Origin: Parasynechococcus marenigrum WH 8102
GTDB taxonomy: Bacteria; Cyanobacteriota; Cyanobacteriia; PCC-6307; Cyanobiaceae
NCBI RefSeq assembly: GCF_000195975.1
Contig: NC_005070.1
Coordinates: forward strand, 840,001 to 872,000
Reading direction: 5' to 3'
DNA length: 32,000 nucleotides
Shown here: positions 2,378 to 18,505 of the stretch, in pieces
How positions within the stretch are numbered: position 1 is the stretch's first letter
How the letters are laid out: the number at the start of each line of letters is the position of its first letter
The notes under the pieces: generated by a model
What the model was told of the DNA's origin: nothing
Seen by the model: the letters and a program-made list of their open reading frames with translations, nothing else
Databases searched by the model: none
Position numbers and translations under genes: made by a program

Positions 2378-2409
2378 TGCACTGCCAGTTGGGATCTGGC
2401 GTCTCTTGG

Positions 2410-2457
2410 CAGTCGGGGAGACAGGATTCGAACCTGCGGCATCTTGCTCCCAAAGCA
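2410..2457 (-). repeat. Island boundary repeat (att-like): displaced 3' portion of tRNA-Pro
   Basis: The 48 bp cagtcggggagacaggattcgaacctgcggcatcttgctcccaaagca are identical, base for base, to 18429-18476. That stretch is tRNA-Pro nt 30-74 plus 3 flanking nt. Confidence 0.9.
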
Positions 2458-2610: not shown

Positions 2611-3783
2611 TTGCCACGAGTTTCCGAGACAGAAGCCTGGATCAAGCCCTTTAGGCGTCAGATCGCAGAGACCTGCGGTGAGAGTTGGTACGTCCGCAAC
2701 AATCGCGGTCGAATCCGTTTGGAGGTCCGTGATGCTGGGACCGTTTCACTTCCGTTCGAGTGGACTGCGCGTGGATCAGCGCTTGCCTTGCCCCGCATTC
2801 AACAGATCTTCAAGCGTTGGAACGGTGGACAGATCACCCTTGCCGCTGCAGCACAAAACGCTGACACCAGCAGCGCCCATCAGAAGCTGGATTTCAGCCA
2901 GTTGATCGAGAAATATCGGGCCTTCGTTCCTAACGCTGGCGACACCACCTGGCAGACCTTCTATCTGCCAGTCCTGCGCAACTGCGCCAAGGCATTCGAC
3001 GGCCGACCACCAGTGGACGGTGAAGCGCTGGCAATGGCTTGCCTCTCCCAGTGGGAACAGGGCTCACGGATGCGTCAGACCTCCCGTCAGAAGCTCTACG
3101 GCTTCTTGAACTGGGCGGTGCAACGTGGACACCTCAAGCCCATCTACAGCCCCCCTGCGGCGCTTCCTGAAGTGCTCAAGCCCAAGCGCATTGGCTATCC
3201 CCTCAGCGATGCGCAGATCCTGCAGCTGCTGGACAACCTCCCCGAGGGCGAGGCCCATGACCGTTGGCGATTCGCCATCCAGCTCTGTGCCGTTTACGGA
3301 TTGAGACCTGAGGAATTGCGCCATCTCCGCATCAAGGACGGGGCAAGCGGGGAAGAACTGTGGACGATTTATCAGAAATCCATGGGTGGCACCAAGGGAG
3401 CCAAGACAGAACCGCGGCGGTTGCACCCGCTGCTGCTGCGTGATGCCGATGGTTCCGCCATCGATTGGAAACTGCAGGCACGGTTGCAGGTTGGTGAACA
3501 GCTGCCGCCGTTGAACCGTGACGGTGATGGTGGCCAGGCTTTGAATCAGTACCTACGCAGACGCAAGGTCTGGATGGCGCTGCGGGGTGAAGCCGAGCAC
3601 CAGAGTGAACAGCTCACGCCCTATTCATTTAGGCACCGCTACGCAAAACAGGCTCACGCGGCACGGCTTGCCGTTGCAGAGATCAGCGAGGCCATGGGCC
3701 ACACCATCGAGGTGCATCTGAAGAGCTACGCGCGGTTCAAGCCCGATGCGACGGCTGCCAATTTCGCCGCAGTCAACGTCTGA
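2611..3783 (+). CDS. int: Tyrosine recombinase / phage-type integrase
   Basis: 390-aa ORF. It has box I GLRPEELRHL and box II TPYSFRHRYAKQA...AMGHTIEVHLKSYARF (R, H-x-x-R, H, Y catalytic set). It starts about 150 nt from the att-like repeat. The TTG start from the track is uncertain. Confidence 0.9.
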   Translation: MPRVSETEAWIKPFRRQIAETCGESWYVRNNRGRIRLEVRDAGTVSLPFEWTARGSALALPRIQQIFKRWNGGQITLAAAAQNADTSSAHQKLDFSQLIEKYRAFVPNAGDTTWQTFYLPVLRNCAKAFDGRPPVDGEALAMACLSQWEQGSRMRQTSRQKLYGFLNWAVQRGHLKPIYSPPAALPEVLKPKRIGYPLSDAQILQLLDNLPEGEAHDRWRFAIQLCAVYGLRPEELRHLRIKDGASGEELWTIYQKSMGGTKGAKTEPRRLHPLLLRDADGSAIDWKLQARLQVGEQLPPLNRDGDGGQALNQYLRRRKVWMALRGEAEHQSEQLTPYSFRHRYAKQAHAARLAVAEISEAMGHTIEVHLKSYARFKPDATAANFAAVNV

Positions 3784-3984
3784 TCACTTCTGCTCGTACA
3801 CCTTGCTTTCCAAGGCGTCTAAGCGCTTTAGAACGTCCTTCATCACCCCTTCGGTGCGGGGGGTAAGCGTTTGTTCAGACAGGGTTACCTCAAGTTTAAA
3901 ATTTATTTCAATTTGCTACCATTACAATCACTCCAATTTACTTCGGAAAAAACAAAGGATAATGATTTAGTTGATTCAAGCAAG

Positions 3985-6900
3985 ATGTCTCAATCATATT
4001 CTAGTGTGGGAAAATTAGATAGAAAAAGTTTCAAACCTTCCGGAAGTGATTATATATTATCGCCTCCGTCTTCGTATAGCAAAAGATTTGCGACCAAGTT
4101 CAAGAATTTCAATGCAAAATCGGACGTAATATCAATTGATCTTAGCGATTTTAATACGACATTGACGGGGATTTATATTGCCAGGTCAAAGAAAGAATTC
4201 AAAAAGGCACAGAAATCCGACAGTGCTTTTATCTATAATTGGAAAAATGGGAGATTATTTTTTAACGAAAATGGCAGTGCAAAAAAATACGGTGATGGTG
4301 GACTTATTGCACGTTTTGCAAAGAAGACACGTTTAAATGAAGAAAATATTATTTTCAATTTTGGCATTCATTCAACTTCAACGCCTGATCCAACACCAAC
4401 ACCAAGTTATTCAATAACAGCCGACAAGATTTCAGTCGATGAGGGAGATCGTGTTAATTGGACTATCACTACTAAAAATGTACGAAAAGGAACCAGGATA
4501 TTTGTGTCTGATGTTTTTGAAAGATCGAATAATATTTATGATAATTACAGTGATATGGATGGGTATGCTCTCGGTTCGGATGGATGGGAAAGTTACTATT
4601 TCAAGGTGAATTCAAAGGGTAAAGTTAAATTCTGGGATGAATGGAATGAGGATGGTATCACCGAGGGAGATGATTCTTATTATTATCAGTTTTACGAAGA
4701 TCCTGATTTTACAGAATTACTCGCGACATCTAAGACGGTTGAAATTATCGATACATCACAAGCACCTTCTGCAACTCCAACACCGGAACCAACTCCGGCA
4801 CCTTCTGCAACTCCAACACCAGAACCAACTCCAGAACCTTCTACAACTCCAACACCGGAACCAACTCCTGAACCCTCTACAGACCAGGGATTTCTAGATG
4901 ATTTCGCGAATAATTCATCTACCAGCGGTGTTATTTCTGTCGGGGATATTGTGAGTAGTGACTTGGAAACAACAGACGATGAAGATTGGTTCCAAATTTC
5001 TTTGACGGAAGAAAGAGTTTATCAATTTGATCTTGAGGGGATACAGTTGACTGACCCTCGAATGAGTCTGCATGGGCCTAGTTTAGAGGAATTAATTTAT
5101 GATGACGATGGAGGATCTGGATATAATTCTAAAATTGAATTTATAGCAACGTCGAGTGACAACTATTTTATTAGTGCAAAAAGTTGGGGGGAAACTGGTA
5201 CTTATACTTTGAAGGCAATAGATATCACTCCAACACCGGAACCAACTCCTGAACCCTCTACAGGCCAGGGACTTTTAGATGATTTCGCGAATAATTTATC
5301 TACCAGCGGTGTTATTTCTGTCGGGGTTATTGTGAGTGGTGACTTGGAAACAACAGACGATGAAGATTGGTTCCAAGTTTCTTTGAAGGAAGGAAGAGTT
5401 TATCAATTTGATCTTGAGGGGATACAGTTGACTGACCCTCAAATGAGTCTGCATGGGCCTAGTTCAGAGGAATTAATTTATGATGACGATGGAGGATCTG
5501 GATATAATTCTAAAATTGAATTTATAGCAACGTCGAGTGACAACTACTTTATTAGTGCAAAGAGTTGGTGGGAAACTGGTACTTATACTTTGAAGGCAAT
5601 AGATATCACTCCAACACCGGAACCAACTCCAGCACCTTCTACAACTCCAACACCAGAACCAACTCCAGAACCTTCTACAACTCCAACACCAGAACCAACT
5701 CCAGCACCTGCTACAACTCCAACACCGGAACCAACTCCAGCACCTTCCGCAACTCCAACACCGGAACCAACTCCAGCACCTTCCGCAACTCCAACACCAG
5801 AACCAACTCCAGCACCTGCTACAACTCCAACACCGGAACCAATACCAGTCCCCACACCTGAGCAGGATTCATCACCTACACCAACTGGTAATCCAACAAA
5901 TACAACCGATGGCGTCTTTTTGTATGGACCACGTCCGATGCAATCTGCTATTAAGACATTCTCAGGCACTGTTGGTGTAGGTGGGGAAGTAGATCGCTTT
6001 GAGATTTCATTTTTGGCTGGAGATGTGGTGAGCTTGTCGGTAGAAGCCGCTGACAATACCTGGCCGTTGCTGCGTCTGGTGGATGCAGAAGGACGCATTT
6101 TGGATCCAGTTAGCGCATACAACAACAATTCCGCCTCCACATCTGGTTATCGCGTTGATGTGGATGCAATGTTGTTCGCCGAGGTTTATGCCCAAAACTC
6201 ATTCACTGGCTCCTACAAACTGTATGTAGAGCGTTTTATTAATGAATCCCCACTTCGACCGATACCGAATGAACTATTAATATTGGTAGAACAGGACGCA
6301 ACGAACAGCGCAGATCAATACTCATCACGTTATCTATACTCTGATTCGGGATTGATTTACATCTCATTTGACTCGAGCCTGTCGGACGAACTTAAAAGTT
6401 GGTGGGAAGACGTATTTGCTGCGACGGATGCTGTGATTGAGCCGGAATTCGTGGTAGTTCCACAAAGTCACCCCAAATCACAGTTAGTAGTCAATCAGAC
6501 GTCATCATACTATGTTAGTGGTGATCATGCTGGGATTTATCAGTCTCCTAGTTATACCTATTCAGAGCTAAGCGATGAAAGCGCTTACAATTTTCAGAGA
6601 AAGAATAATCAAGGTGAAATTCTTCTCGCCGAAGCGGCTTTTTCTCATTCGACGCGTTTTGGTGGATCCCGAGAAGCTGGTTGGAAAAGCGTTGCGTTTC
6701 ATGAATTAGGGCATGCCCTAGGCCTAGAGCATCCTCACGACAGCTCTGATGGCGATGTTGATCGAATTATCGATACAAATGGAACAGTAATGTCCTATGA
6801 GAAAACACAGGATTCGGATGGTGATCCTGGCTTCACTGATCTGGATGTAAATGCGCTTCAGTTTGTATATGGCACAGAGACCGGTGTACTAACACCTTCG

Positions 6901-7350
6901 CCTTTAGAAGGGATTCCGCTCTTAATTGAGAGTCGCACATTTGATCTTTCAAAGCGATGGAAGTCGCCAATATTGTCAGCAGAATGGATTGGCGGTTACA
7001 CAATCCAGGAGCCCAGTTCGGGACTGTCAACCAAAGTCCTACAATTAACACGTTCGGAAGGTTATCTAGAAAACGAATCCAAAATTTGGCTGGATTTTGA
7101 TTTGGGAGACGGCCTGAAAAACTGGAATTCCCTTAATGGTTATTCCGAAGGATTTCACGATGTACTAATCCTTGGCAATTCTGTCACGTTTGAACCCGGC
7201 GAGGCCACAGCTTTGTTTGATCTTCCCATTGTTGCTGGAAGTCATGCAGAGAGCGATGAATGGGTGGATGTGACTGTGCGTCCGGAATACCCGGATCTCT
7301 ACAAAGCAGTTCCTGATTCGGCACTGCGGCTGACCATCGTCGATGCCTGA
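3985..7350 (+). CDS. Large multidomain serralysin-type (M10-like) zinc metalloprotease with PT-rich linkers, three PPC-like domains and a Calx-beta-like C-terminus
   Basis: Frame is open from 3871 and the first ATG is at 3985 (MSQSYSS). Zinc motif VAFHELGHALGLEHPHD lies at nt 6700-6735, with Met-turn TVMSY and DLDVNALQFVYG. Two near-identical domains plus one divergent domain have the pre-peptidase C-terminal pattern (DDEDWFQISL...YQFDL...GTYTLKAI). TPTPEPTPAPS linkers are present. The C-terminal VTFEPGEATALFDLPIVAGSHAESDEWVDVTV is Calx-beta-like. GC is very low. There is no N-terminal signal peptide. Confidence 0.85.
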   Translation: MSQSYSSVGKLDRKSFKPSGSDYILSPPSSYSKRFATKFKNFNAKSDVISIDLSDFNTTLTGIYIARSKKEFKKAQKSDSAFIYNWKNGRLFFNENGSAKKYGDGGLIARFAKKTRLNEENIIFNFGIHSTSTPDPTPTPSYSITADKISVDEGDRVNWTITTKNVRKGTRIFVSDVFERSNNIYDNYSDMDGYALGSDGWESYYFKVNSKGKVKFWDEWNEDGITEGDDSYYYQFYEDPDFTELLATSKTVEIIDTSQAPSATPTPEPTPAPSATPTPEPTPEPSTTPTPEPTPEPSTDQGFLDDFANNSSTSGVISVGDIVSSDLETTDDEDWFQISLTEERVYQFDLEGIQLTDPRMSLHGPSLEELIYDDDGGSGYNSKIEFIATSSDNYFISAKSWGETGTYTLKAIDITPTPEPTPEPSTGQGLLDDFANNLSTSGVISVGVIVSGDLETTDDEDWFQVSLKEGRVYQFDLEGIQLTDPQMSLHGPSSEELIYDDDGGSGYNSKIEFIATSSDNYFISAKSWWETGTYTLKAIDITPTPEPTPAPSTTPTPEPTPEPSTTPTPEPTPAPATTPTPEPTPAPSATPTPEPTPAPSATPTPEPTPAPATTPTPEPIPVPTPEQDSSPTPTGNPTNTTDGVFLYGPRPMQSAIKTFSGTVGVGGEVDRFEISFLAGDVVSLSVEAADNTWPLLRLVDAEGRILDPVSAYNNNSASTSGYRVDVDAMLFAEVYAQNSFTGSYKLYVERFINESPLRPIPNELLILVEQDATNSADQYSSRYLYSDSGLIYISFDSSLSDELKSWWEDVFAATDAVIEPEFVVVPQSHPKSQLVVNQTSSYYVSGDHAGIYQSPSYTYSELSDESAYNFQRKNNQGEILLAEAAFSHSTRFGGSREAGWKSVAFHELGHALGLEHPHDSSDGDVDRIIDTNGTVMSYEKTQDSDGDPGFTDLDVNALQFVYGTETGVLTPSPLEGIPLLIESRTFDLSKRWKSPILSAEWIGGYTIQEPSSGLSTKVLQLTRSEGYLENESKIWLDFDLGDGLKNWNSLNGYSEGFHDVLILGNSVTFEPGEATALFDLPIVAGSHAESDEWVDVTVRPEYPDLYKAVPDSALRLTIVDA
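4762..4881 (+). repeat. 36-bp tandem repeat (about 3.3 units) encoding a (A/E)PS(A/T)TPTPEPTP linker
   Basis: Units begin at 4762, 4798 and 4834 with 1-4 substitutions each. They are in frame within the protease gene. Confidence 0.85.
4861..5622 (+). repeat. 2 x 381-bp in-frame tandem duplication (PPC-like domain plus linker)
   Basis: ccaactcctgaaccctctaca recurs at 4861 and 5242, and the next unit boundary falls at 5623. By eye the two 127-codon units differ at about 15 nt. Confidence 0.9.
5608..5859 (+). repeat. 36-bp tandem repeat (7 units) encoding a TPTPEPTPAPS(A/T) linker
   Basis: Units of actccaacaccRgaaccaactccagcaccttcYRca begin at 5608, 5644, 5680, 5716, 5752, 5788 and 5824. The last unit is degenerate. 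Confidence 0.85.
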
Positions 7351-10809: not shown

Positions 10810-11433
10810 ATGGAAACCAAGACACGAAAAGCAGCCACAGCTCACAAGATCATCGAGGCAGGAGAAGGTGTTCTGAATCTGGTCTGGGGCAAAGCCGATG
10901 AAAGGAGAGCAGCTTCGCTTGAGATCATTGCTCGCACTGCTTACACAGCAGAGGAGAGTGCCTGCCACTACCTAGAGACCATTGGTCTCGATAAAGAAGG
11001 CACGATCAGGGACACATTGGAACTGGCTCGTTACCAGGACACCAATGAGCAGACCCACGAGGACATTTTCGCCAGGGATCTAGATGGATTGAAGAACTGG
11101 GGTGACCGCTTCTTAGCCAGACACATCGCCGTGGTCATCTATTGGGTGTTCGCCATCACAACCCTTATTGACCATGAGATGGCTGCCTTGCTGGGTGAGG
11201 CCGTTGAGGTCGAGGCAGTCAAGACGTACAGGCGGATGCTGAAGGAGCAACCAGAGGAGTGGCTAGACCAGCCAGCAGCACCAACCGCAACTCACTACTG
11301 GGAGAAGCCCAACAGCATGTGGCGAGTAAGAGGTGACCATATGCCTGGCTCTATGCGTGACGTAGTGGAAGCGATCGTTAGAGACGAAGCAGACCACGTC
11401 AAAGCCAATAGCAAGAAAGCAACAGCTTTTTAA
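10810..11433 (+). CDS. ptox: Plastoquinol terminal oxidase (PTOX, alternative-oxidase family di-iron protein)
   Basis: All four AOX/PTOX iron-ligand motifs occur in order: LEIIARTAY, NEQTHE (E-x-x-H), EVEAVKTY and RDEADH (E-x-x-H). The length of 207 aa is in the range of cyanobacterial and cyanophage PTOX. Confidence 0.85.
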   Translation: METKTRKAATAHKIIEAGEGVLNLVWGKADERRAASLEIIARTAYTAEESACHYLETIGLDKEGTIRDTLELARYQDTNEQTHEDIFARDLDGLKNWGDRFLARHIAVVIYWVFAITTLIDHEMAALLGEAVEVEAVKTYRRMLKEQPEEWLDQPAAPTATHYWEKPNSMWRVRGDHMPGSMRDVVEAIVRDEADHVKANSKKATAF

Positions 11434-11490
11434 TCGGAGACTGAAATGCTTGCGATTGATTACCTGGTGTAATCCGTTGTTGCGCCACTG

Positions 11491-11644
11491 CCCGATGAGA
11501 TCGACCTACAGCACTGCGAGGAGTGCAGTATCAGTGGGTTTGCGGGTCTCCCTGACGGTGGGTTGACCGTTAGGTCGGCTGAGGCGTAACAGCGGGGAAT
11601 ATCTCAGGCAGTCACGTCTGACCAATGCCTCAAGACACCTGCAT
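11491..11644 (+). repeat. Copy A of a conserved GC-rich non-coding element (about 154 nt)
   Basis: Aligns block-wise with 13473-13639. Shared blocks are CCCGATGAGAT, CAGCACTGCGAGGAG, CCCTGACGGTG, CGTTAGGTC, GCAGCGGGGAA and an identical GGCAGTCACGTCTGACCAATGCCTCAA. Contains the hairpin CCTGACGG-8nt-CCGTTAGG. Confidence 0.7.
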
Positions 11645-11843
11645 CTCCCTGTTCCTACTGGCTGAACTGTTTGCAGCACTGCAAGCCAATGCCTCTGACC
11701 TGTTCAAGCGGTGGCTGTATGGGGGTATCCAAGACCTAGGTGAAGCTGCCGTGACGGAGCTACTGCTGGATTGGATTGACCCGTTCATCACCCGAGTCGA
11801 GAGGGACAGGATTGTGACGTGGCACCTGGGAGTGAGCCTCTAA
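11625..11843 (+). CDS. Hypothetical protein (72 aa), possibly the 5' part of a frameshifted gene
   Basis: Its ATG lies inside the conserved end of repeat copy A. The next frame is open from 11836 and overlaps this stop. Confidence 0.35.
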   Translation: MPQDTCISLFLLAELFAALQANASDLFKRWLYGGIQDLGEAAVTELLLDWIDPFITRVERDRIVTWHLGVSL

Positions 11844-11874
11844 CCAGAACGGCATCAAGCCCAGCATCAGGACA

Positions 11875-12099
11875 GTGGCAGAAGGGCTGCCTCAGCACTC
11901 TGCTGAAGCGATCAGGTCCAGCATCAAGCGGCTGAGAGGCAAGGAGTGGCTGCTGGGAGAGGGCAGATCCAAAGGACCTGAGATCGTGCCTGATGGAAGT
12001 GGTGCCAAAGTTTCTTTTAGACACCCACTCCCTTTGAAAAAGGCCATGGCCCATAAAAAATGGCCCATAAATTTTGGATGTGGGCCATTCGGGTCATGA
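11875..12099 (+). CDS. Hypothetical protein (74 aa), weak HTH-like segment
   Basis: GTG start. AEGLPQHSAEAIRSSIKRLRGKEWLL looks HTH-like. The 3' end is made of the ATGGCCCA repeats, which argues against normal coding there. Confidence 0.25.
   Translation: MAEGLPQHSAEAIRSSIKRLRGKEWLLGEGRSKGPEIVPDGSGAKVSFRHPLPLKKAMAHKKWPINFGCGPFGS
12042..12088. promoter_or_regulatory. Operator-like cluster: ATGGCCCA x2 direct repeats plus one inverted TGGGCCAT
   Basis: ATGGCCCATAAA occurs at 12046 and 12060 (14-nt spacing). The reverse complement TGGGCCAT is at 12081-12088. The palindrome GGCCATGGCC is at 12042-12051. Confidence 0.4.
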
Positions 12100-12391
12100 G
12101 ATATGTGCCGCGCATAATTGCAGTCAGTGACTGGTGTTTCCCTTGATATGGGCTGTGTGTAGTGGTGTGTGTGTTGGGAGGAGAGAGTGTTATTCCACTT
12201 CTGCTGTCATCTGATCAGCAGCAAGCACCGGTTCACCAGAGGCTGACGACTAAAAAGCTCTATCTACGGCATTTCAAGCGCTCTTGGTGGTCTGCTGATG
12301 TGATGACTTCTTGGAACTCCCTTCTCTAGGTGTGGCTATCCGCAGTGCTTGAAGCCATGGCTTCTATCTCTCGGCAGTCAGGATTTGTGGT

Positions 12392-12652
12392 ATGGAAAGA
12401 AAGATTCGCCAGACCTACAGACCACGTGGCCACAGATGGCTGGTGAATGTTGACCAGCACAAGGTTGTTGAGTTCCAGCCCGAAGAGCCAACAGCAGATG
12501 GTCAGTGGGTGACACTGCGCACCTTTCACTGGCGCCCGCCTGATTGCCCGATTCCTGAGACGCGTCGACGGATGGCTAGACACAAGGCCATTGAGGCTTG
12601 GGAGACAATGGTTAGTACCGGATGGCGGCGATGTTCACCACCAGTGAGATGA
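12392..12652 (+). CDS. Small basic Trp-rich protein (86 aa), possibly DUF1651-like
   Basis: ATG start, no overlapping alternative apart from the 3' end. The C-terminal ARHKAIEAWETMVSTGWRR resembles small marine-picocyanobacterial families, from memory only. Confidence 0.45.
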   Translation: MERKIRQTYRPRGHRWLVNVDQHKVVEFQPEEPTADGQWVTLRTFHWRPPDCPIPETRRRMARHKAIEAWETMVSTGWRRCSPPVR

Positions 12653-12744
12653 TCCTGGCGTCATAGGGAATGCCAGCATCTTCGGGATGCGCCTCAGCCC
12701 ACCGGCAACGTATGCCTCCCAGCAATCGCCCACGTCGCCGACGA

Positions 12745-12963
12745 TCAGGATCGGAGCGATAGACGTCCTCCAGAAATTGAATTGTGCAAAAGGTCGGATG
12801 CGTACCTGCGTCCAGCTTTGTTCGCATCGGTGATTGACTTAAAGTTTCCTACAAAGTCATATTCACGCCCATCAATCGTGGCAGAAACGGCGTATAGATT
12901 CTGATTCACCTTTTGGACGCTCCAGCGCAAAACGCAGGCCGGAGTTTTCTTTGAAGCATTCAT
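12745..12963 (-). CDS. Hypothetical protein (72 aa), possibly frameshifted with 12612-12827
   Basis: Track ORF that overlaps a second minus-strand ORF in another frame. No motif recognised. Confidence 0.25.
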   Translation of the reverse strand: MNASKKTPACVLRWSVQKVNQNLYAVSATIDGREYDFVGNFKSITDANKAGRRYASDLLHNSISGGRLSLRS

Positions 12964-13140
12964 TCTTCTCTCCTGATCGGACGAAGAACATAAGCCGCAG
13001 GGAACCAGAGACTCGCTAAAGATTATTATTTCGCAAATAAGTATTTATTTTCTGTTCATATTCTACTCAAGAAGTTCTGTGAAGATATCTATTGAATGAC
13101 GCTTTTTTGCGCAAGCTACCAGAAAAGGGAGGAATGCCCC

Positions 13141-13374
13141 ATGAAATTGTTTGCATATTCCGTCTCGGTCCTTTTGATATCAGCAGCACCTGCGCACTCT
13201 TCCAGCGACAAGCAAGTCTTCCTGTCAATGAAGAAGTTTGAGCAGTTGGCTGACAGGGCACATGCCTTTTGCGCGAGCGTTGACCTTGAGTTCTCTCAAA
13301 AGTTCTATGACTGCATGGACCAGAAGATGCATGGAATTTATATCGACAGCAGCACGGTTAGATCACGTAATTAA
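13141..13374 (+). CDS. Small secreted protein (77 aa)
   Basis: The ATG at 13141 is preceded by AAAAGGGAGGAA (a Shine-Dalgarno-like site). Signal peptide MKLFAYSVSVLLISAAPAHS. Low GC, like the adjacent protease cassette. Confidence 0.6.
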   Translation: MKLFAYSVSVLLISAAPAHSSSDKQVFLSMKKFEQLADRAHAFCASVDLEFSQKFYDCMDQKMHGIYIDSSTVRSRN

Positions 13375-13472
13375 TATGAATACGGGTCCTTCCTGTGTAG
13401 TACAGCGTAGGTCAATTCGGACCTCCTTCATCATTTAGTGCCCGATAAGTTTGGCCTAAATGGGGCCATCAA

Positions 13473-13639
13473 CCCGATGAGATTGCCCGGCAGCACTGCG
13501 AGGAGATGCATCAGCGATGGGTGGTGTGTGACTGCCCTGACGGTGTGCTGGGGAGGCTTTGGTGGTGGGTTAGTCGTTAGGTCTGCAGCGGGGAACACTT
13601 CTGGCAGTCACGTCTGACCAATGCCTCAAAATACCGCAT
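13473..13639 (+). repeat. Copy B of the conserved GC-rich non-coding element (about 167 nt)
   Basis: Has the same blocks as copy A. The hairpin is kept as CCTGACGG-~30nt-TCGTTAGG (C to U gives G.U). It is GC-rich yet embedded in low-GC DNA on both sides, and it ends about 97 nt upstream of the second metzincin ATG. Confidence 0.7.
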
Positions 13640-13735
13640 TGTAATGTTCCTTTAGGAGGGGTAATATCAAGAAATAGTGACATTAATTGACTCAGCGCAA
13701 GTCAATTCTAATATTGTATATATCGCAAATTATCA

Positions 13736-15001
13736 ATGAAACCGATTGAGGCAATTGAGCTAATTATGTCTCAAGCCCATATTGACGACATGAAGACTAT
13801 TGTCGGCAGCGACTTAATCTTAGACATATACATATCACCAGGAGGAGAACCTCACATAGCGTGGGATGATAGAGCGCAAGAGGACGTGGAAACTATAACT
13901 AAAAAGCCGGCCGAATGGCAATATAAAGTAATGCGTGAAGCCATGGAGAGAGTCAACAGGGAATTTGATATTACCATTGACGAGGTTGAATATGAACAGC
14001 TTTCAGACACACAAATAAAGCTAACGACCGTTCCTAATTCGGATGCCGTGAATGGTGAATGGATAAGAAGTTGGGATAACAGCGGGGTTGCGGATATTTA
14101 TCTATCGATGACATATCAGAGTGGCCTGGAGGGTAGTAAATATCCAGATGCCCATGAAAATCCTGACAAATATACTCATGACGAATGGGAAAAATCCGAG
14201 TGGAAAAAGATTTTTATTCATGAACTTGGCCATTTGCTTGGCCTCGAACATCCTTGGGACAAAGATGATGGAGACTGGGCAGTTGATGGTCCAGACGTAG
14301 AAACAGAGAAAACGATCATGGGATATGAAAGTAGGGATGCCAGCGGCAAAGTAATGGACTGGTTCCAGGATGTAGATCAGCGCGCTTTGAAACAAATATG
14401 GGGTGCATCAACAGCTAATCCCGAACCAACTCCTGAACCGGTTCCAACCCCTACTCCAGAACCAACGCCTGCAACTGTTCTTACACCCACGCCAGAACCA
14501 CCGCCAACGCCATCTCTAGAACTACCACCATCGCCATTATCACCACCAATTGATGGTGACTTCTCATCTCTACCACCCGACTTATGGCTGTCGCAAACTC
14601 ACGACGTCATCATTCAATCAGTTCGTGGTAAGGGTAAATTAAAGGGTAAGAAAGGTGCAGATGCCTTCTATTTTAATTCCTTTGAGGCATTTACTAAAAA
14701 GTCTGCTGACAAGATCATTGGATTTAAAGCATCGCAAGACACAATTGCCGTAAGTCCCGATGCGTTTCCTGCATTGGAAGGTGTCTCCGCTATCAGGTTT
14801 GCATCGACCAAGAGCAAAAATGAATTAAAGCAATTATCCAAGGAGGATTACGATTTTGTCTATTTTGAGAAAAAAGGTCGGCTCTACTTCGATGGAAATG
14901 GCGCAGAGAAGAACTGGGGAAACAGTGATGAAGGAGGTCTTGTGGCAATCCTGAAAGGAAAGCCTGAGCTAACTGTTGAAGACATCACACTGCTTGCTTG
15001 A
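13736..15001 (+). CDS. Serralysin-type (M10-like) zinc metalloprotease with a PT-rich linker and a C-terminal post-RTX-like module
   Basis: Zinc motif IFIHELGHLLGLEHPWD at nt 14219-14254, Met-turn TIMGY and QDVDQRALKQIWG. The linker is NPEPTPEPVPTPTPEPTPA. The C-terminus is GKKGADAFYF...DKIIGF...DTIAV...FVYFEKKGRLYFDGNG...GGLVAILKG...LTVEDITLL. Low GC and no signal peptide. Confidence 0.85.
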   Translation: MKPIEAIELIMSQAHIDDMKTIVGSDLILDIYISPGGEPHIAWDDRAQEDVETITKKPAEWQYKVMREAMERVNREFDITIDEVEYEQLSDTQIKLTTVPNSDAVNGEWIRSWDNSGVADIYLSMTYQSGLEGSKYPDAHENPDKYTHDEWEKSEWKKIFIHELGHLLGLEHPWDKDDGDWAVDGPDVETEKTIMGYESRDASGKVMDWFQDVDQRALKQIWGASTANPEPTPEPVPTPTPEPTPATVLTPTPEPPPTPSLELPPSPLSPPIDGDFSSLPPDLWLSQTHDVIIQSVRGKGKLKGKKGADAFYFNSFEAFTKKSADKIIGFKASQDTIAVSPDAFPALEGVSAIRFASTKSKNELKQLSKEDYDFVYFEKKGRLYFDGNGAEKNWGNSDEGGLVAILKGKPELTVEDITLLA

Positions 15002-15025: not shown

Positions 15026-15051
15026 GCCCCGTTAGCAATGGCGGGGTTTTT
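15026..15051 (+). terminator. Rho-independent terminator
   Basis: CCCCG-ttagcaatgg-CGGGG followed by TTTTT, 25 nt after the protease stop. It lies between convergent genes. Confidence 0.6.
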
Positions 15052-15731: not shown

Positions 15732-16988
15732 TCAGAACATCCAGAGCCATGGCGGGCGACCACCTCCCGCTGTTGATTGCCCCTTCACGCGTTGGATCTG
15801 CAGTGCGTTGCCGCTTGAGTAGTAATCACGAAGCTCCTTGGCGACGGTCTTCTCGTGAGCACCAATGCCCGCTGCAATCGTCTCTACGGCCTGCGGCTGC
15901 CCTTTCCGCTGTCGTAGGTATTCGAGCGTCTTGGCGATGACTGAGCACCGTTCTGATGGGGTCTCTCCACCGCCTTGAACACCAACAAAGGTGAGGGAGA
16001 AATCATCTGTGGATCCCTGGAGGTCCCAAGTGGTTCCCGCCTCGCAATTCCGCTTGCCGAGGCAGCGCAGCATGAACTGATAGGGGAAGGCATCTTCTGC
16101 TTTGTTGGCCCAGTAGCCAAAGACGTCAGAGCAGGCAGCGGTGAGCATCCCGGTGCCAAGAAAATCGTCTAGCCCTACCGCTGTGCGTCCTTTGGCGGTG
16201 TCGGCTTTGCGGAGGTGAATCAGCAGAAAGATGACAACCCCAAGTTCAGCGGCCAGGTGGTTCAGCTGATAAAGGAACAGGGCGTATTCCGGATCGGTTG
16301 ATTTAATGCCGCGACCACCAGCAACGGTGGTGATCGAGTCAATGCCGATGAGCTTGGCTCCGGTCTTCTGGATCTTGCGCTTCAGTTCAGGAACCATGGC
16401 GGGGTTAAAGCCCCACATCCAATGAATGGGCAGATCAGCGTCAGCGCCCATTGCCAGGAATTTCTTTTTGGCGTTGAGGTCTGATTCATCGCATTGCACG
16501 ATGATTGCGGGACCACGTTGAACGGTGAGTTCATTGAAGAGCGGGGCACCAGATGCAACTGCGATAGCGGCTTGATACATGAGGGTTGTCTTTCCCTCGC
16601 CCTTATCTCCATCAATGCAGACCAGGGCACCTTTGGCACCGAATTGATCAATGCCCCATGTGGCGTCGTGTTGACGCTCCATGAGTTCAGCAAGCGTGCA
16701 ATCTTGGTCGTTGCGTTGCTCATCGATGAGCGTTGCAACGGCTTGATCGAAGGCCTTGCCGTTGGTGAGCCCTGTTTGCTCTCTGAGGTTCTGGAGGGCA
16801 ATGAACCGCTCAGTGGGGGATTCGATGTCTTCGAGCACCTCCAGGCCGAGCTTCAGGGTGTCGAGGGCAACAGCACCTGTGATGACTTCCAGCAGTGCAG
16901 CCTTCTGCTGTTCACGATTGGCGTGCCCGTTTTTGCTGGGCAGTTCAAACACGTCTGCAAGTTGTGGTGGGTCAGAGACGAAAGTCAT
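15732..16988 (-). CDS. RecA/RepA-like AAA ATPase (AAA_25-type, putative replicative helicase) with a C-terminal winged-helix-like domain
   Basis: Walker A is IDGDKGEGKTTL and Walker B is AKLIGIDSITTV. Also present are IVQCDES and VVIFLLIHLRK, as in RepA/DnaB-like island proteins. The C-terminal end is LEYLRQRKGQPQAVETIAAGIG...TVAKELR. Confidence 0.8.
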   Translation of the reverse strand: MTFVSDPPQLADVFELPSKNGHANREQQKAALLEVITGAVALDTLKLGLEVLEDIESPTERFIALQNLREQTGLTNGKAFDQAVATLIDEQRNDQDCTLAELMERQHDATWGIDQFGAKGALVCIDGDKGEGKTTLMYQAAIAVASGAPLFNELTVQRGPAIIVQCDESDLNAKKKFLAMGADADLPIHWMWGFNPAMVPELKRKIQKTGAKLIGIDSITTVAGGRGIKSTDPEYALFLYQLNHLAAELGVVIFLLIHLRKADTAKGRTAVGLDDFLGTGMLTAACSDVFGYWANKAEDAFPYQFMLRCLGKRNCEAGTTWDLQGSTDDFSLTFVGVQGGGETPSERCSVIAKTLEYLRQRKGQPQAVETIAAGIGAHEKTVAKELRDYYSSGNALQIQRVKGQSTAGGGRPPWLWMF

Positions 16989-17609: not shown

Positions 17610-17915
17610 TCATTCCCCCTCTTTTTTAAGGTGGTCTTCGTCGCCATAGGTTTCGATCAGTCCTAGGCGTTTCTCCAGATCAGCTTTCCGGCGAGAGCCC
17701 TTTTCTTGCACTGCAGCGATGGTTCGCTCGGCAAGTGTTTTTCTGATGGCGTCGATGTCATAGACCACAGGGCCACCAGGGGTGCCAGTGACAAAGATGT
17801 AATGATCGCCAGGCGTCAGCCTGCCGTCACGACGCATTGATCTGAGGGTGTTGTGCTTGATCGCCAGGAGCTTTGCAGCCTCTGGCTCATGCACCCACTG
17901 CGGGGTGGAATCCAT
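17610..17915 (-). CDS. xis: Excisionase / AlpA-like HTH DNA-binding protein
   Basis: EAAKLLAIKHNTLRSMRRDGRLTPGDHYIF matches the excisionase-family HTH pattern. It is 101 aa and only 3 nt upstream of the next gene. Confidence 0.7.
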   Translation of the reverse strand: MDSTPQWVHEPEAAKLLAIKHNTLRSMRRDGRLTPGDHYIFVTGTPGGPVVYDIDAIRKTLAERTIAAVQEKGSRRKADLEKRLGLIETYGDEDHLKKEGE

Positions 17916-18394: not shown

Positions 18395-18431
18395 TTCGCG
18401 CAAGCGGTTTGGGGAATCGCTGAGATGTCAG

Positions 18432-18505
18432 TCGGGGAGACAGGATTCGAACCTGCGGCATCTTGCTCCCAAAGCAAGCGCGCTACCAAACTGCGCCACT
18501 CCCCG
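18432..18505 (-). tRNA. tRNA-Pro: tRNA-Pro (anticodon UGG)
   Basis: A 74-nt cloverleaf folded by hand: CGGGGAG-UG-GCGC-AGUUUGGUA-GCGC-G-CUUGC-UUUGGGA-GCAAG-AUGCC-GCAGG-UUCGAAU-CCUGU-CUCCCCG-A. CCA is not encoded. Confidence 0.93.

Follow-up and report, generated by a model that had tools for sequence, protein, structure and literature searches.

We analysed a 32,000-nucleotide (nt) window of the genome of Parasynechococcus marenigrum WH 8102 (NC_005070.1, positions 840,001 to 872,000 of the forward strand; all positions below count from the first letter of this window), which carries two copies, here called A and B, of a GC-rich repeat that a sequence-only reading had described as a non-coding element of about 155-167 nt with a hairpin of variable length. 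The repeat is a composite, consisting of a distal non-coding segment of about 110 nt, a leader of about 35 nt and the 5' end of a gene for a 72-amino-acid (aa) protein, and it is not a free-standing structured RNA. The interpretation we favour, to which we give a probability of about 0.72 as a whole, has several parts: the two elements are paralogous copies of one segment; within the non-coding part only the leader is under purifying selection, the distal segment probably being a lineage-restricted neutral flank carried along by a segmental duplication; copy B is a relic, its 72-aa gene having been lost after about 32 nt, with a metalloprotease cassette in its place; and the unit probably served as a passive recombination anchor, by a route (homologous, or homology-facilitated illegitimate) that we infer from the junctions.

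Both copies lie on the plus strand, copy A at 11478-11624 and copy B at 13460-13620, and ATGCCTCAA follows each. Alignment with MAFFT of 11470-11660 against 13450-13660 gave 79% column identity over about 190-210 nt, and a repeat search of the window returned one block of 33 nt (11491-11523 and 13473-13505, 88%) and another of 50 nt (11590-11639 and 13586-13635, 88%), in agreement with the positions at which the two copies had been placed. The homology runs past the limits first drawn for it, from about 11478 and 13460 to 11656 and 13652, and so enters an open reading frame (ORF). The 27-mer GGCAGTCACGTCTGACCAATGCCTCAA is, as had been claimed, identical between copies A and B, and its 17-nt core occurs exactly twice in the window, with 0.12 occurrences expected even when three mismatches are allowed. 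Based on the alignments, copy A comprises a short form of the distal segment at 11478-11589 (TTGCGCCACTG CCCGATGAGAT...CAGCACTGCGAGGAG...CCCTGACGG...CCGTTAGGTCGGCTGAGGCGTAA) and the leader CAGCGGGGAATATCTCAGGCAGTCACGTCTGACCA at 11590-11624, directly 5' of a start codon; copy B comprises a long form of the distal segment at 13460-13585 and the leader CAGCGGGGAACACTTCTGGCAGTCACGTCTGACCA at 13586-13620. The surroundings of the copies were also described correctly: a gene for PTOX, an alternative oxidase (10810-11433, plus strand; Pfam PF01786), ends 58 nt before copy A (11433 to 11491), a small secreted ORF (13141-13374, plus strand; 77 aa when read from the ATG at 13141) stops 99 nt short of copy B (13374 to 13473), and copy B is a block of 52% GC between flanks of 40-45%. 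All A-type copies at other loci likewise sit behind a PTOX gene, and the B-type copies in L026 and L046 (loci of the comparison set introduced below) sit behind the same small secreted ORF as copy B. What does not hold is the picture of a discrete module of about 155 nt, the best-conserved part of which turned out to be the leader and start codon of the widespread 72-aa gene.

The intact 72-aa gene lies at 11625-11843 on the plus strand (MPQDTCISLFLLAEL...WHLGVSL). Its ATG at 11625 is Met1 of a family of 847 homologous clusters in which the length is constant, Met1 is conserved and the N-terminus reads M[PTL][QR]DT[RC]I, and the end of the 27-mer supplies the start codon and the N-terminal codons of this family. 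The observation that the 27-mer opens a 72-aa ORF in copy A and a short stub in copy B was therefore accurate, and the ORF belongs to a conserved gene family. The exact protein behind copy A is deposited as WP_042503235.1 (Parasynechococcus marenigrum, WH8102/WH8103). An AlphaFold model of it (pLDDT 77) predicts a four-helix bundle, for which Foldseek found zero matches in the PDB at E<=0.001, and the protein matched no Pfam, NCBIfam or PHROG family; a protein-based search of IMG/VR for the family found none. The gene is real and widespread, is scattered through the genomic islands of marine Synechococcus, often as broken relics, and is abundant in marine metagenomes. Measured from the leader through the stop codon the unit is about 254 bp long, and it is multi-copy within islands, with three copies each in L044 and L071 and two in L035.

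To define the part of the upstream region that travels with this gene, we compared 39 metagenomic loci encoding relatives, together with loci from exact-protein look-ups, and aligned their upstream regions at the ATG. Across contexts only about the last 35 nt, roughly -36 to -1, were shared. They carry the motif AGCGGGGAACACTyMAGGCAGTCACnnCTGACCn, followed by the ATG (as aligned, AG[CA]GGGGAACACT[TC][CA]AGGCAGTCAC[nn]CTGACCn), and they stand at a fixed distance before the start codon of genes of the 72-aa family. At least 15 unrelated upstream contexts show this arrangement, among them positions behind different ORFs, behind AT-rich DNA and behind a terminator-like hairpin. For 18 representative units, the mean pairwise identity of the leader core was 0.853, versus 0.661 at third codon positions, and the consensus identity at codon positions 1 and 2 was about 0.91. 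The leader is thus conserved like non-synonymous sites and above the neutral level, and it was recognisable even at about 50% amino-acid identity, as with AAGCGGGGAATGCTTTAAGCAG in L087. It most likely acts in cis as the 5' untranslated region (UTR) or translation-initiation region of the 72-aa gene, a role that we infer from its placement and conservation.

Within the leader, the inner GTCA-N4-TGAC has invariant arms and a variable centre, showed no covariation in the leader alignment, and is compatible with a small hairpin as well as with a palindromic DNA site. Of three further candidates, the first was rejected and the other two found no support. The outer GGCA/TGCC stem that completed the fold proposed for the 27-mer is broken in the many homologues that begin ATGACC, with ACC as second codon, and no compensating change accompanies it. 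A possible long-range pairing of GGGGAACA with UGUUCC is missing from divergent homologues, and in close relatives neither side varies. A promoter of the extracytoplasmic function (ECF) or sigma-70 type within the leader, judged by eye, was a misfit in spacing and in position relative to the ATG, and lacked a TAnnnT box.

The leader motif is previously undescribed and is not in Rfam, and the gene behind it is small. In these respects its closest counterparts are the Downstream-peptide RNA, or glutamine-II riboswitch motif (RF01704), and the glnA RNA, which likewise place a short conserved sequence directly 5' of a small ORF without known function and occur mainly in marine Synechococcus and metagenomes. 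Unlike these RNAs, our leader matches no Rfam model even at E<=10, is conserved over only about 35 nt, has no covarying helices or pseudoknot that we could see, and suggests no ligand-based mechanism.

The distal segment was sought by BLAST and with an nhmmer profile among about 60 loci and was found in four settings only: behind PTOX (A-type), behind the small secreted ORF (B-type, in L046 and as the second L026 copy), as one mosaic copy in L071, and as a truncated and diverged copy in L048. At least 15 other contexts in which the 72-aa gene occurs lack it upstream. The distal part of copy B shares 92-94% identity with its counterparts in L046 and in the second copy of L026 and 87% with L071:1901-2025, and that of copy A has an identity of 0.75-0.82 to the B-type. 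Between A-type and B-type units with a full gene, the distal segments have an identity of 0.82 plus 14 nt of indels, and the third codon positions of the linked genes have an identity of 0.76-0.82. Since the distal divergence equals the synonymous rate, we read this segment as a flank that was probably carried along in a segmental duplication.

Nor does the distal segment appear to code for protein. Single-nucleotide (1-nt) indels separate its A-type variants, a stop interrupts the frame in one B-type copy, and a tblastx comparison of copy B with the L071 segment gave 71-74% identity in five frames, with all six about equally similar and none preferred. The most protein-like frame, PDEI..QHCEE..PDG, had as its sole match among 5.8 billion proteins a 39-aa gene call in BOUM118 (CP047947.1, locus L025). 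There was no single frame kept throughout, no restriction of indels to threes and no set of homologous proteins, and on the single match and the equal tblastx frames we rejected a coding role. The sequence-only reading had held that reading frames are not conserved between the copies, which is right for the distal part (no preferred frame, 1-nt indels, stops) and wrong at the 3' end, where a start codon and ORF are conserved. At that end only, the similarity is indeed that of a duplicated gene fragment with a conserved frame, an explanation which that reading had allowed for. Short similarities in MAFFT alignments between the distal part and a common hairpin-and-spacer arrangement were too weak to claim homology.

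Tests for RNA structure gave little signal. Minimum-free-energy z-scores for copies A and B were -0.7 and -0.3 on the plus strand and -1.05 and +0.35 on the minus strand, and folding was no better than that of shuffled sequence on either strand in either copy. Searched against Rfam 15 at the gathering threshold, the window contained two tRNAs only, with none of the matches at the element; at E<=10, the region 11300-13800 gave two spurious viral matches only, both outside the copies; and across 17 related loci there was no match at the element, the families not matched there including Downstream-peptide, glnA, Cyano-1/Yfr2, Cyano-2 and Yfr1. The earlier remark that the repeat resembles no known riboswitch or RNA family is borne out by these empty searches. 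The accompanying proposal of a structured small RNA (sRNA) or leader of about 155 nt is not, given that there is no fold signal, that the distal part looks neutral and that the conserved core is a gene leader. A Cyano-2 RNA (RF01702, 188.8 bits) does occur elsewhere in L069, at 196-396 on the plus strand, and the same locus holds three relics of the 72-aa unit.

The internal stem reported for both copies was confirmed in part. Its arms are present (CCTGACGG and CCGTTAGG in copy A, TCGTTAGG in copy B) and compatible with pairing through G.U, but the z-scores are not significant and an alternative pairing does equally well. The accompanying growth of the loop from 8 nt to about 30 nt in copy B runs the other way. 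The closest relatives of copy A (L045, L050, L026, L027, L042 and L080) have both copies of the 9-nt direct repeat CTGACGGTG and the 22 nt between them, and this long form, CCCTGACGGTG[TGCTGGGAAGGCTCTGACGGTG]GGTTGACC, aligns with copy B. Copy A retains a single CTGACGGTG at 11552-11560 (plus strand), the site at which the 22 nt TGCTGGGAAGGCTCTGACGGTG are missing relative to the long A-type. The short 'loop' of copy A is evidently a 22-nt deletion between the CTGACGGTG repeats.

Copy B continues past its leader into a relic of the 72-aa gene. In BLAST alignments, unit positions 1-67 correspond to 13586-13652, and the homology to the unit stops at 13652. The relic itself (13621-13652, plus strand) consists of the ATG and six codons, a TAA at 13642-13644, and then degenerates to TGTTCCT. 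Low-GC cargo DNA (GC 0.40-0.44) begins at 13653. It contains a sigma-70-like promoter, TTGACT-16/17-TAATAT, at 13687-13715 (plus strand), a match to consensus only and no proof of function; the low-GC cargo gene for an M10/reprolysin-like metallopeptidase of 421 aa at 13736-15001 (plus strand; Pfam); and a terminator-like hairpin with a GNRA loop at 15027-15051 (plus strand; CCCCGTTAGCAATGGCGGGG, then a T run), which closes the cassette. The putative promoter would belong to the metalloprotease cassette, and copy B would not be needed for expression of that gene. The same B-type copy occurs in L026 and L046, and there the 72-aa homologue behind it is longer or complete. At two positions in these loci, L026:7179 and L046:344, ACG stands in place of the ATG and the 72-aa ORF is otherwise intact or largely so. 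The metalloprotease itself also varies: in BOUM118 (L025 5096-6109) it has 337 aa, versus 421 aa in the window, and the alignment of the two breaks between 14464 and 14598, in linker repeats rich in Pro, Thr and Glu.

These features can be accounted for by the following history. The flank of about 110 nt, the leader of about 35 nt and the 5' end of the 72-aa gene would have been duplicated within this island lineage. Copy A would have kept the intact gene, and at copy B a low-GC metalloprotease cassette, bringing its own promoter-like site and terminator hairpin, would have been joined about 32 nt into the gene. As direct repeats about 2 kb apart, and as a unit present in many copies, they could then have acted as a passive homology anchor at which cargo was deleted, inserted or replaced.

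Comparison of island variants that encode an identical PTOX protein is consistent with this history, as they differ exactly at the repeats. In BOUM118 the flank of copy A (..TTGCGCCA) is joined directly to a B-type copy (TCAACCCGATGAG..), and the 1,982-bp interval between the copies is missing. Loci L027, L028, L032 and L080 agree with the window through copy A and about 100 nt into the ORF and then, at about unit position 145, pass into a gene for a giant protein; L026 is the same as the window through 13652, just past copy B, and then differs. The relics of the unit point in the same direction. Fragments anchored at the 5' end stop at unit positions 58, 67, 77, 80, 115, 134-136, 145, 200-203 and 223-241, and those anchored at the 3' end begin anywhere in positions 55-216. 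An exhaustive profile search of the 72-aa family gave 517 representatives at 50% identity; among the 146 of these that were listed, 36 were full length, 60 were 5'-anchored, 38 were 3'-anchored and 12 were internal, and 49 of the 60 5'-anchored representatives listed carried an unrelated tail of at least 8 aa. Scattered end-points of this kind argue against a site-specific mechanism and favour a passive homology anchor, and the copies would lie at cassette boundaries because multi-copy direct repeats serve as such anchors. The suggestion that the repeat marks junctions at which cargo cassettes are exchanged thus stands in so far as BOUM118, L026 and the four giant-protein loci differ there, and falls as regards site-specific exchange, the breakpoints being scattered.

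Two further patterns were seen around the unit at other loci. At L062:3683-3760, L077:1791-1860 and L077:2974-3040, the hairpin and spacer are joined straight to the 3' end of the unit (..ERDRMVAWHLGVS), as could result from internal deletions between AGCGGGGAAC, at the start of the leader, and GAGCGGGACAGG, a similar stretch of coding sequence near unit position 205. In full 72-aa units elsewhere, the stop codon is immediately followed by the conserved motif CCAGATGGGGGATA...AAATCCCTCAGnTGGGGGAGGTG, with an ATCCC/GGGAT inverted repeat (L051:3220-3270, L052, L054 at about 300, L057, L060, L044:2115-2165 and L034:4220-4270); this motif is absent from the window.

Dispersed repeats and gene fragments that act as recombination anchors offer the nearest parallel: like them, the unit is multi-copy and in one orientation, has relics fused to unrelated DNA, and shows in a sister strain a deletion of the exact interval between direct copies. 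The present case is unlike them in that the route is read from sequence and that one junction falls in only 4-8 nt of similarity.

Several observations weigh against the interpretation that we favour. The junction with so little similarity is that of BOUM118, which lies at the extreme 5' edge of the repeat and outside its long identical tracts, an unusual position for plain homologous recombination. At several loci the leader begins only 25-32 nt past a terminator-like hairpin with a GNRA loop, and it contains neither a Shine-Dalgarno sequence nor a TAnnnT box; in combination these imply a non-canonical promoter overlapping the leader, or expression by read-through. Copy B holds a perfect 9-nt complement, GTGACTGCC, to the leader's GGCAGTCAC. 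Finally, two hairpins in the distal part stay compatible with pairing in all copies. The first, P1 (GCACU-GCGAGG-AGUGC), differs between the A and B types by one A-U/G-C exchange. The second, S1, is CUGACGGU/ACCGUUAG in A and UUGGUGGU/GUCGUUAG in B, and the five transitions that separate the two all keep pairing through G.U, on the plus strand only. These hairpins are compatible with an RNA role for the distal part. The complements of the leader's GGCAGT(CAC) lie at 13528-13536 in copy B, set against the leader at 13603-13611, and at 11487-11495 in copy A, set against the leader at 11604-11612, and so at positions that are non-homologous; that of copy A is ACTGCCCGA, at its 5' edge, and that of copy B is the perfect 9-mer.

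The alternative that draws most on these points is that the whole ~150 nt forms a structured cis-regulatory 5' UTR, like a riboswitch or attenuator, in which hairpins and anti-leader sequences control access to the start. P1 and S1 have standard pairs in 97% of cells, and beside the one compensatory pair and five wobble-compatible transitions there are the complements to the leader's GGCAGU(CAC) in both copies and the fact that the distal segment always lies directly upstream of the gene or its relic. Yet the plus-strand folding z-scores were not significant, the covariation term in RNAalifold was only -0.68 kcal/mol in what is effectively a comparison of about two lineages, and S1 competes with the pairing of the sequence-only reading, which fits about equally well and uses an alternative 5' arm. 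The distal part also diverges at the synonymous rate, with indels, is missing from most members of the family, and has no Rfam match even at E<=10. The P1/S1 pairing pattern is suggestive but cannot outweigh the neutral divergence rate, and we consider a regulatory UTR of this kind unlikely. A neighbouring proposal, in which each copy is an independent sRNA gene, starts from the intergenic, relatively GC-rich and repeated nature of the segment. Island-encoded sRNAs are known in picocyanobacteria. Here, however, no promoter-like or terminator-like site was found within or flanking either copy, there was neither an Rfam match nor a fold signal, and a conserved start codon and ORF follow immediately at the 3' end; of all the explanations weighed, this one strikes us as the least credible.

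We regard it as very improbable that the element is a dedicated site-specific recombination site, similar to attC or att, for cargo cassettes. In its favour, both copies mark cassette boundaries, the join in BOUM118 coincides exactly with the 5' edge of the element, the unit keeps a sharp 5' boundary whatever its context, and a conserved hairpin closes the cassettes. Against this, the end-points of relics occur throughout the unit in either direction. The only integrase lies next to the tRNA-Pro att repeat described below, and neither an integron integrase nor another recombinase is nearby. There are no paired inverted cores of the attC kind, the inverted repeats being 9-nt arms that differ between the copies, and the sharp 5' boundary is equally explained by selection on the leader. 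Integron cassettes and attC sites share with the present system a repeat at the boundaries of exchangeable single-gene cargo in one orientation, but here there is no IntI and no attC architecture, the junctions vary, and the repeat is a gene with its leader. A miniature inverted-repeat transposable element or insertion sequence remnant was rejected as well, neither copy having terminal inverted repeats and no transposase being nearby. Just as improbable, in our view, is that the distal part descends from the 3' end of a protein gene, now decayed, that lay upstream of the 72-aa gene and made up a two-gene unit with it. In L035-L041 a 123-aa ORF ends (..VDEIPDG*) with its TGA directly before CAGCGGGGAAC, another ORF stops at the same spot in L049 and L061, and the PDEI..QHCEE..PDG frame can be read in both copies and was called as the 39-aa gene in BOUM118. 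That frame, however, has no homologue besides this call among the 5.8 billion proteins, is broken by stops or 1-nt indels in the long A-type and in the second L026 copy, has no start codon, and is no more similar in tblastx than the other frames, and its likeness to the C-terminus of the 123-aa protein amounts to just 3+3 residues.

The hairpin that closes the metalloprotease cassette recurs outside the window. Its sequence, CCCCGTyAGCAATGGCGGGG-T5-6 with a GCAA tetraloop, is conserved in at least 22 distinct contexts of related islands (window 15027-15051; L024:8218, L025:6135, L034:917, L035:3204, L044:398 and 1812, L053:3659, L071:200 and 4605, L078:119 and 837, L079:1260, and others). It shares the strand of the 72-aa unit in every case, often comes after CATCTCCCGACAAAACAyTCA and is not in Rfam; in 6 of its contexts the leader and 72-aa unit start 25-32 nt later.

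Both copies lie in an island of about 16 kb that is bracketed by 51-nt direct repeats of tRNA-Pro. One boundary is a 51-nt copy of the 3' part of the tRNA (2407-2457, minus strand), 98% identical to 18426-18476, and adjoins a tyrosine-recombinase integrase (2611-3783, plus strand); the other is the intact tRNA-Pro(tgg) (18431-18505, minus strand) and adjoins a replication and excision module consisting of an AAA_25 primase/helicase-like gene (15732-16988, minus strand) and an excisionase-like ORF (17610-17915, minus strand). Cargo-type genes identified by Pfam include a glutamate symporter, a DUF2808 protein, PTOX, DUF1651 and the M10/reprolysin-like protease. Judged by this gene content, the setting is a tRNA-Pro-integrated, tycheposon-like island, which has the tRNA with its partial repeat, the recombinase, the replication module and the cargo. 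Tycheposons, integrative elements of Prochlorococcus that target tRNA genes and carry cargo (Hackl et al., bioRxiv 10.1101/2020.12.28.424599), have in common with our island the partial and intact tRNA, the tyrosine recombinase, the primase/helicase-type module and the niche-type cargo. The repeat studied here is not the att site, and a term search of the preprint turned up neither a repeated gene nor a leader unit inside the island at junctions of cargo, and no use of 'direct repeat' or 'intergenic'. We found no mention of the 72-aa unit in this preprint or in the genome paper of Dore et al. 2020, and no papers citing SYNW0886-0889.

A 1159-aa ORF at 3871-7350 (plus strand) is full of 18/36-nt tandem repeats, with 13 copies of a 135-nt register, and has a 300-nt duplication (4846-5145 and 5227-5526, 96%); its repeat family weakly resembles the proline-rich linker of the metalloprotease (14391-14525). 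Searches for the repeat in other collections yielded little. Distant-mode blastn of copy A against phage records gave no match, and an exact 17-mer scan of IMG/VR gave one chance match inside a phage ORF. Scanned in the same way, the GTDB genome collection produced 18 matches, of which the one inspected (L006) was a chance match and the rest were in unrelated phyla, a 17-mer being too short for this purpose. These species-representative data returned no Parasynechococcus/WH8102 record, although the exact 72-aa protein is on an NCBI contig.

If the reading of duplication and replacement is correct, the repeat would be mostly explained as the duplicated 5' region of a gene, with one copy decapitated, and a candidate for a novel structured RNA would be removed. 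What the window and its relatives offer instead are base-resolved examples of cargo turnover in the tRNA-Pro island of a model Synechococcus lineage, with the deletion of an exact interval and replacements that start inside a repeat, and hints of a recurring architecture of unit plus hairpin around cargo genes. A wider possibility, which we put forward as speculative and think doubtful at present, is that the unit, its leader and the GNRA-loop hairpin make up a 'handle' system that frames cargo cassettes in the tycheposon-like islands of marine Synechococcus. Were this true, recombination at the handles would exchange cargo between islands and strains and would have left behind, as its scars, the truncated units that metagenomes contain by the hundreds, and the leader could in addition bind a dedicated factor.

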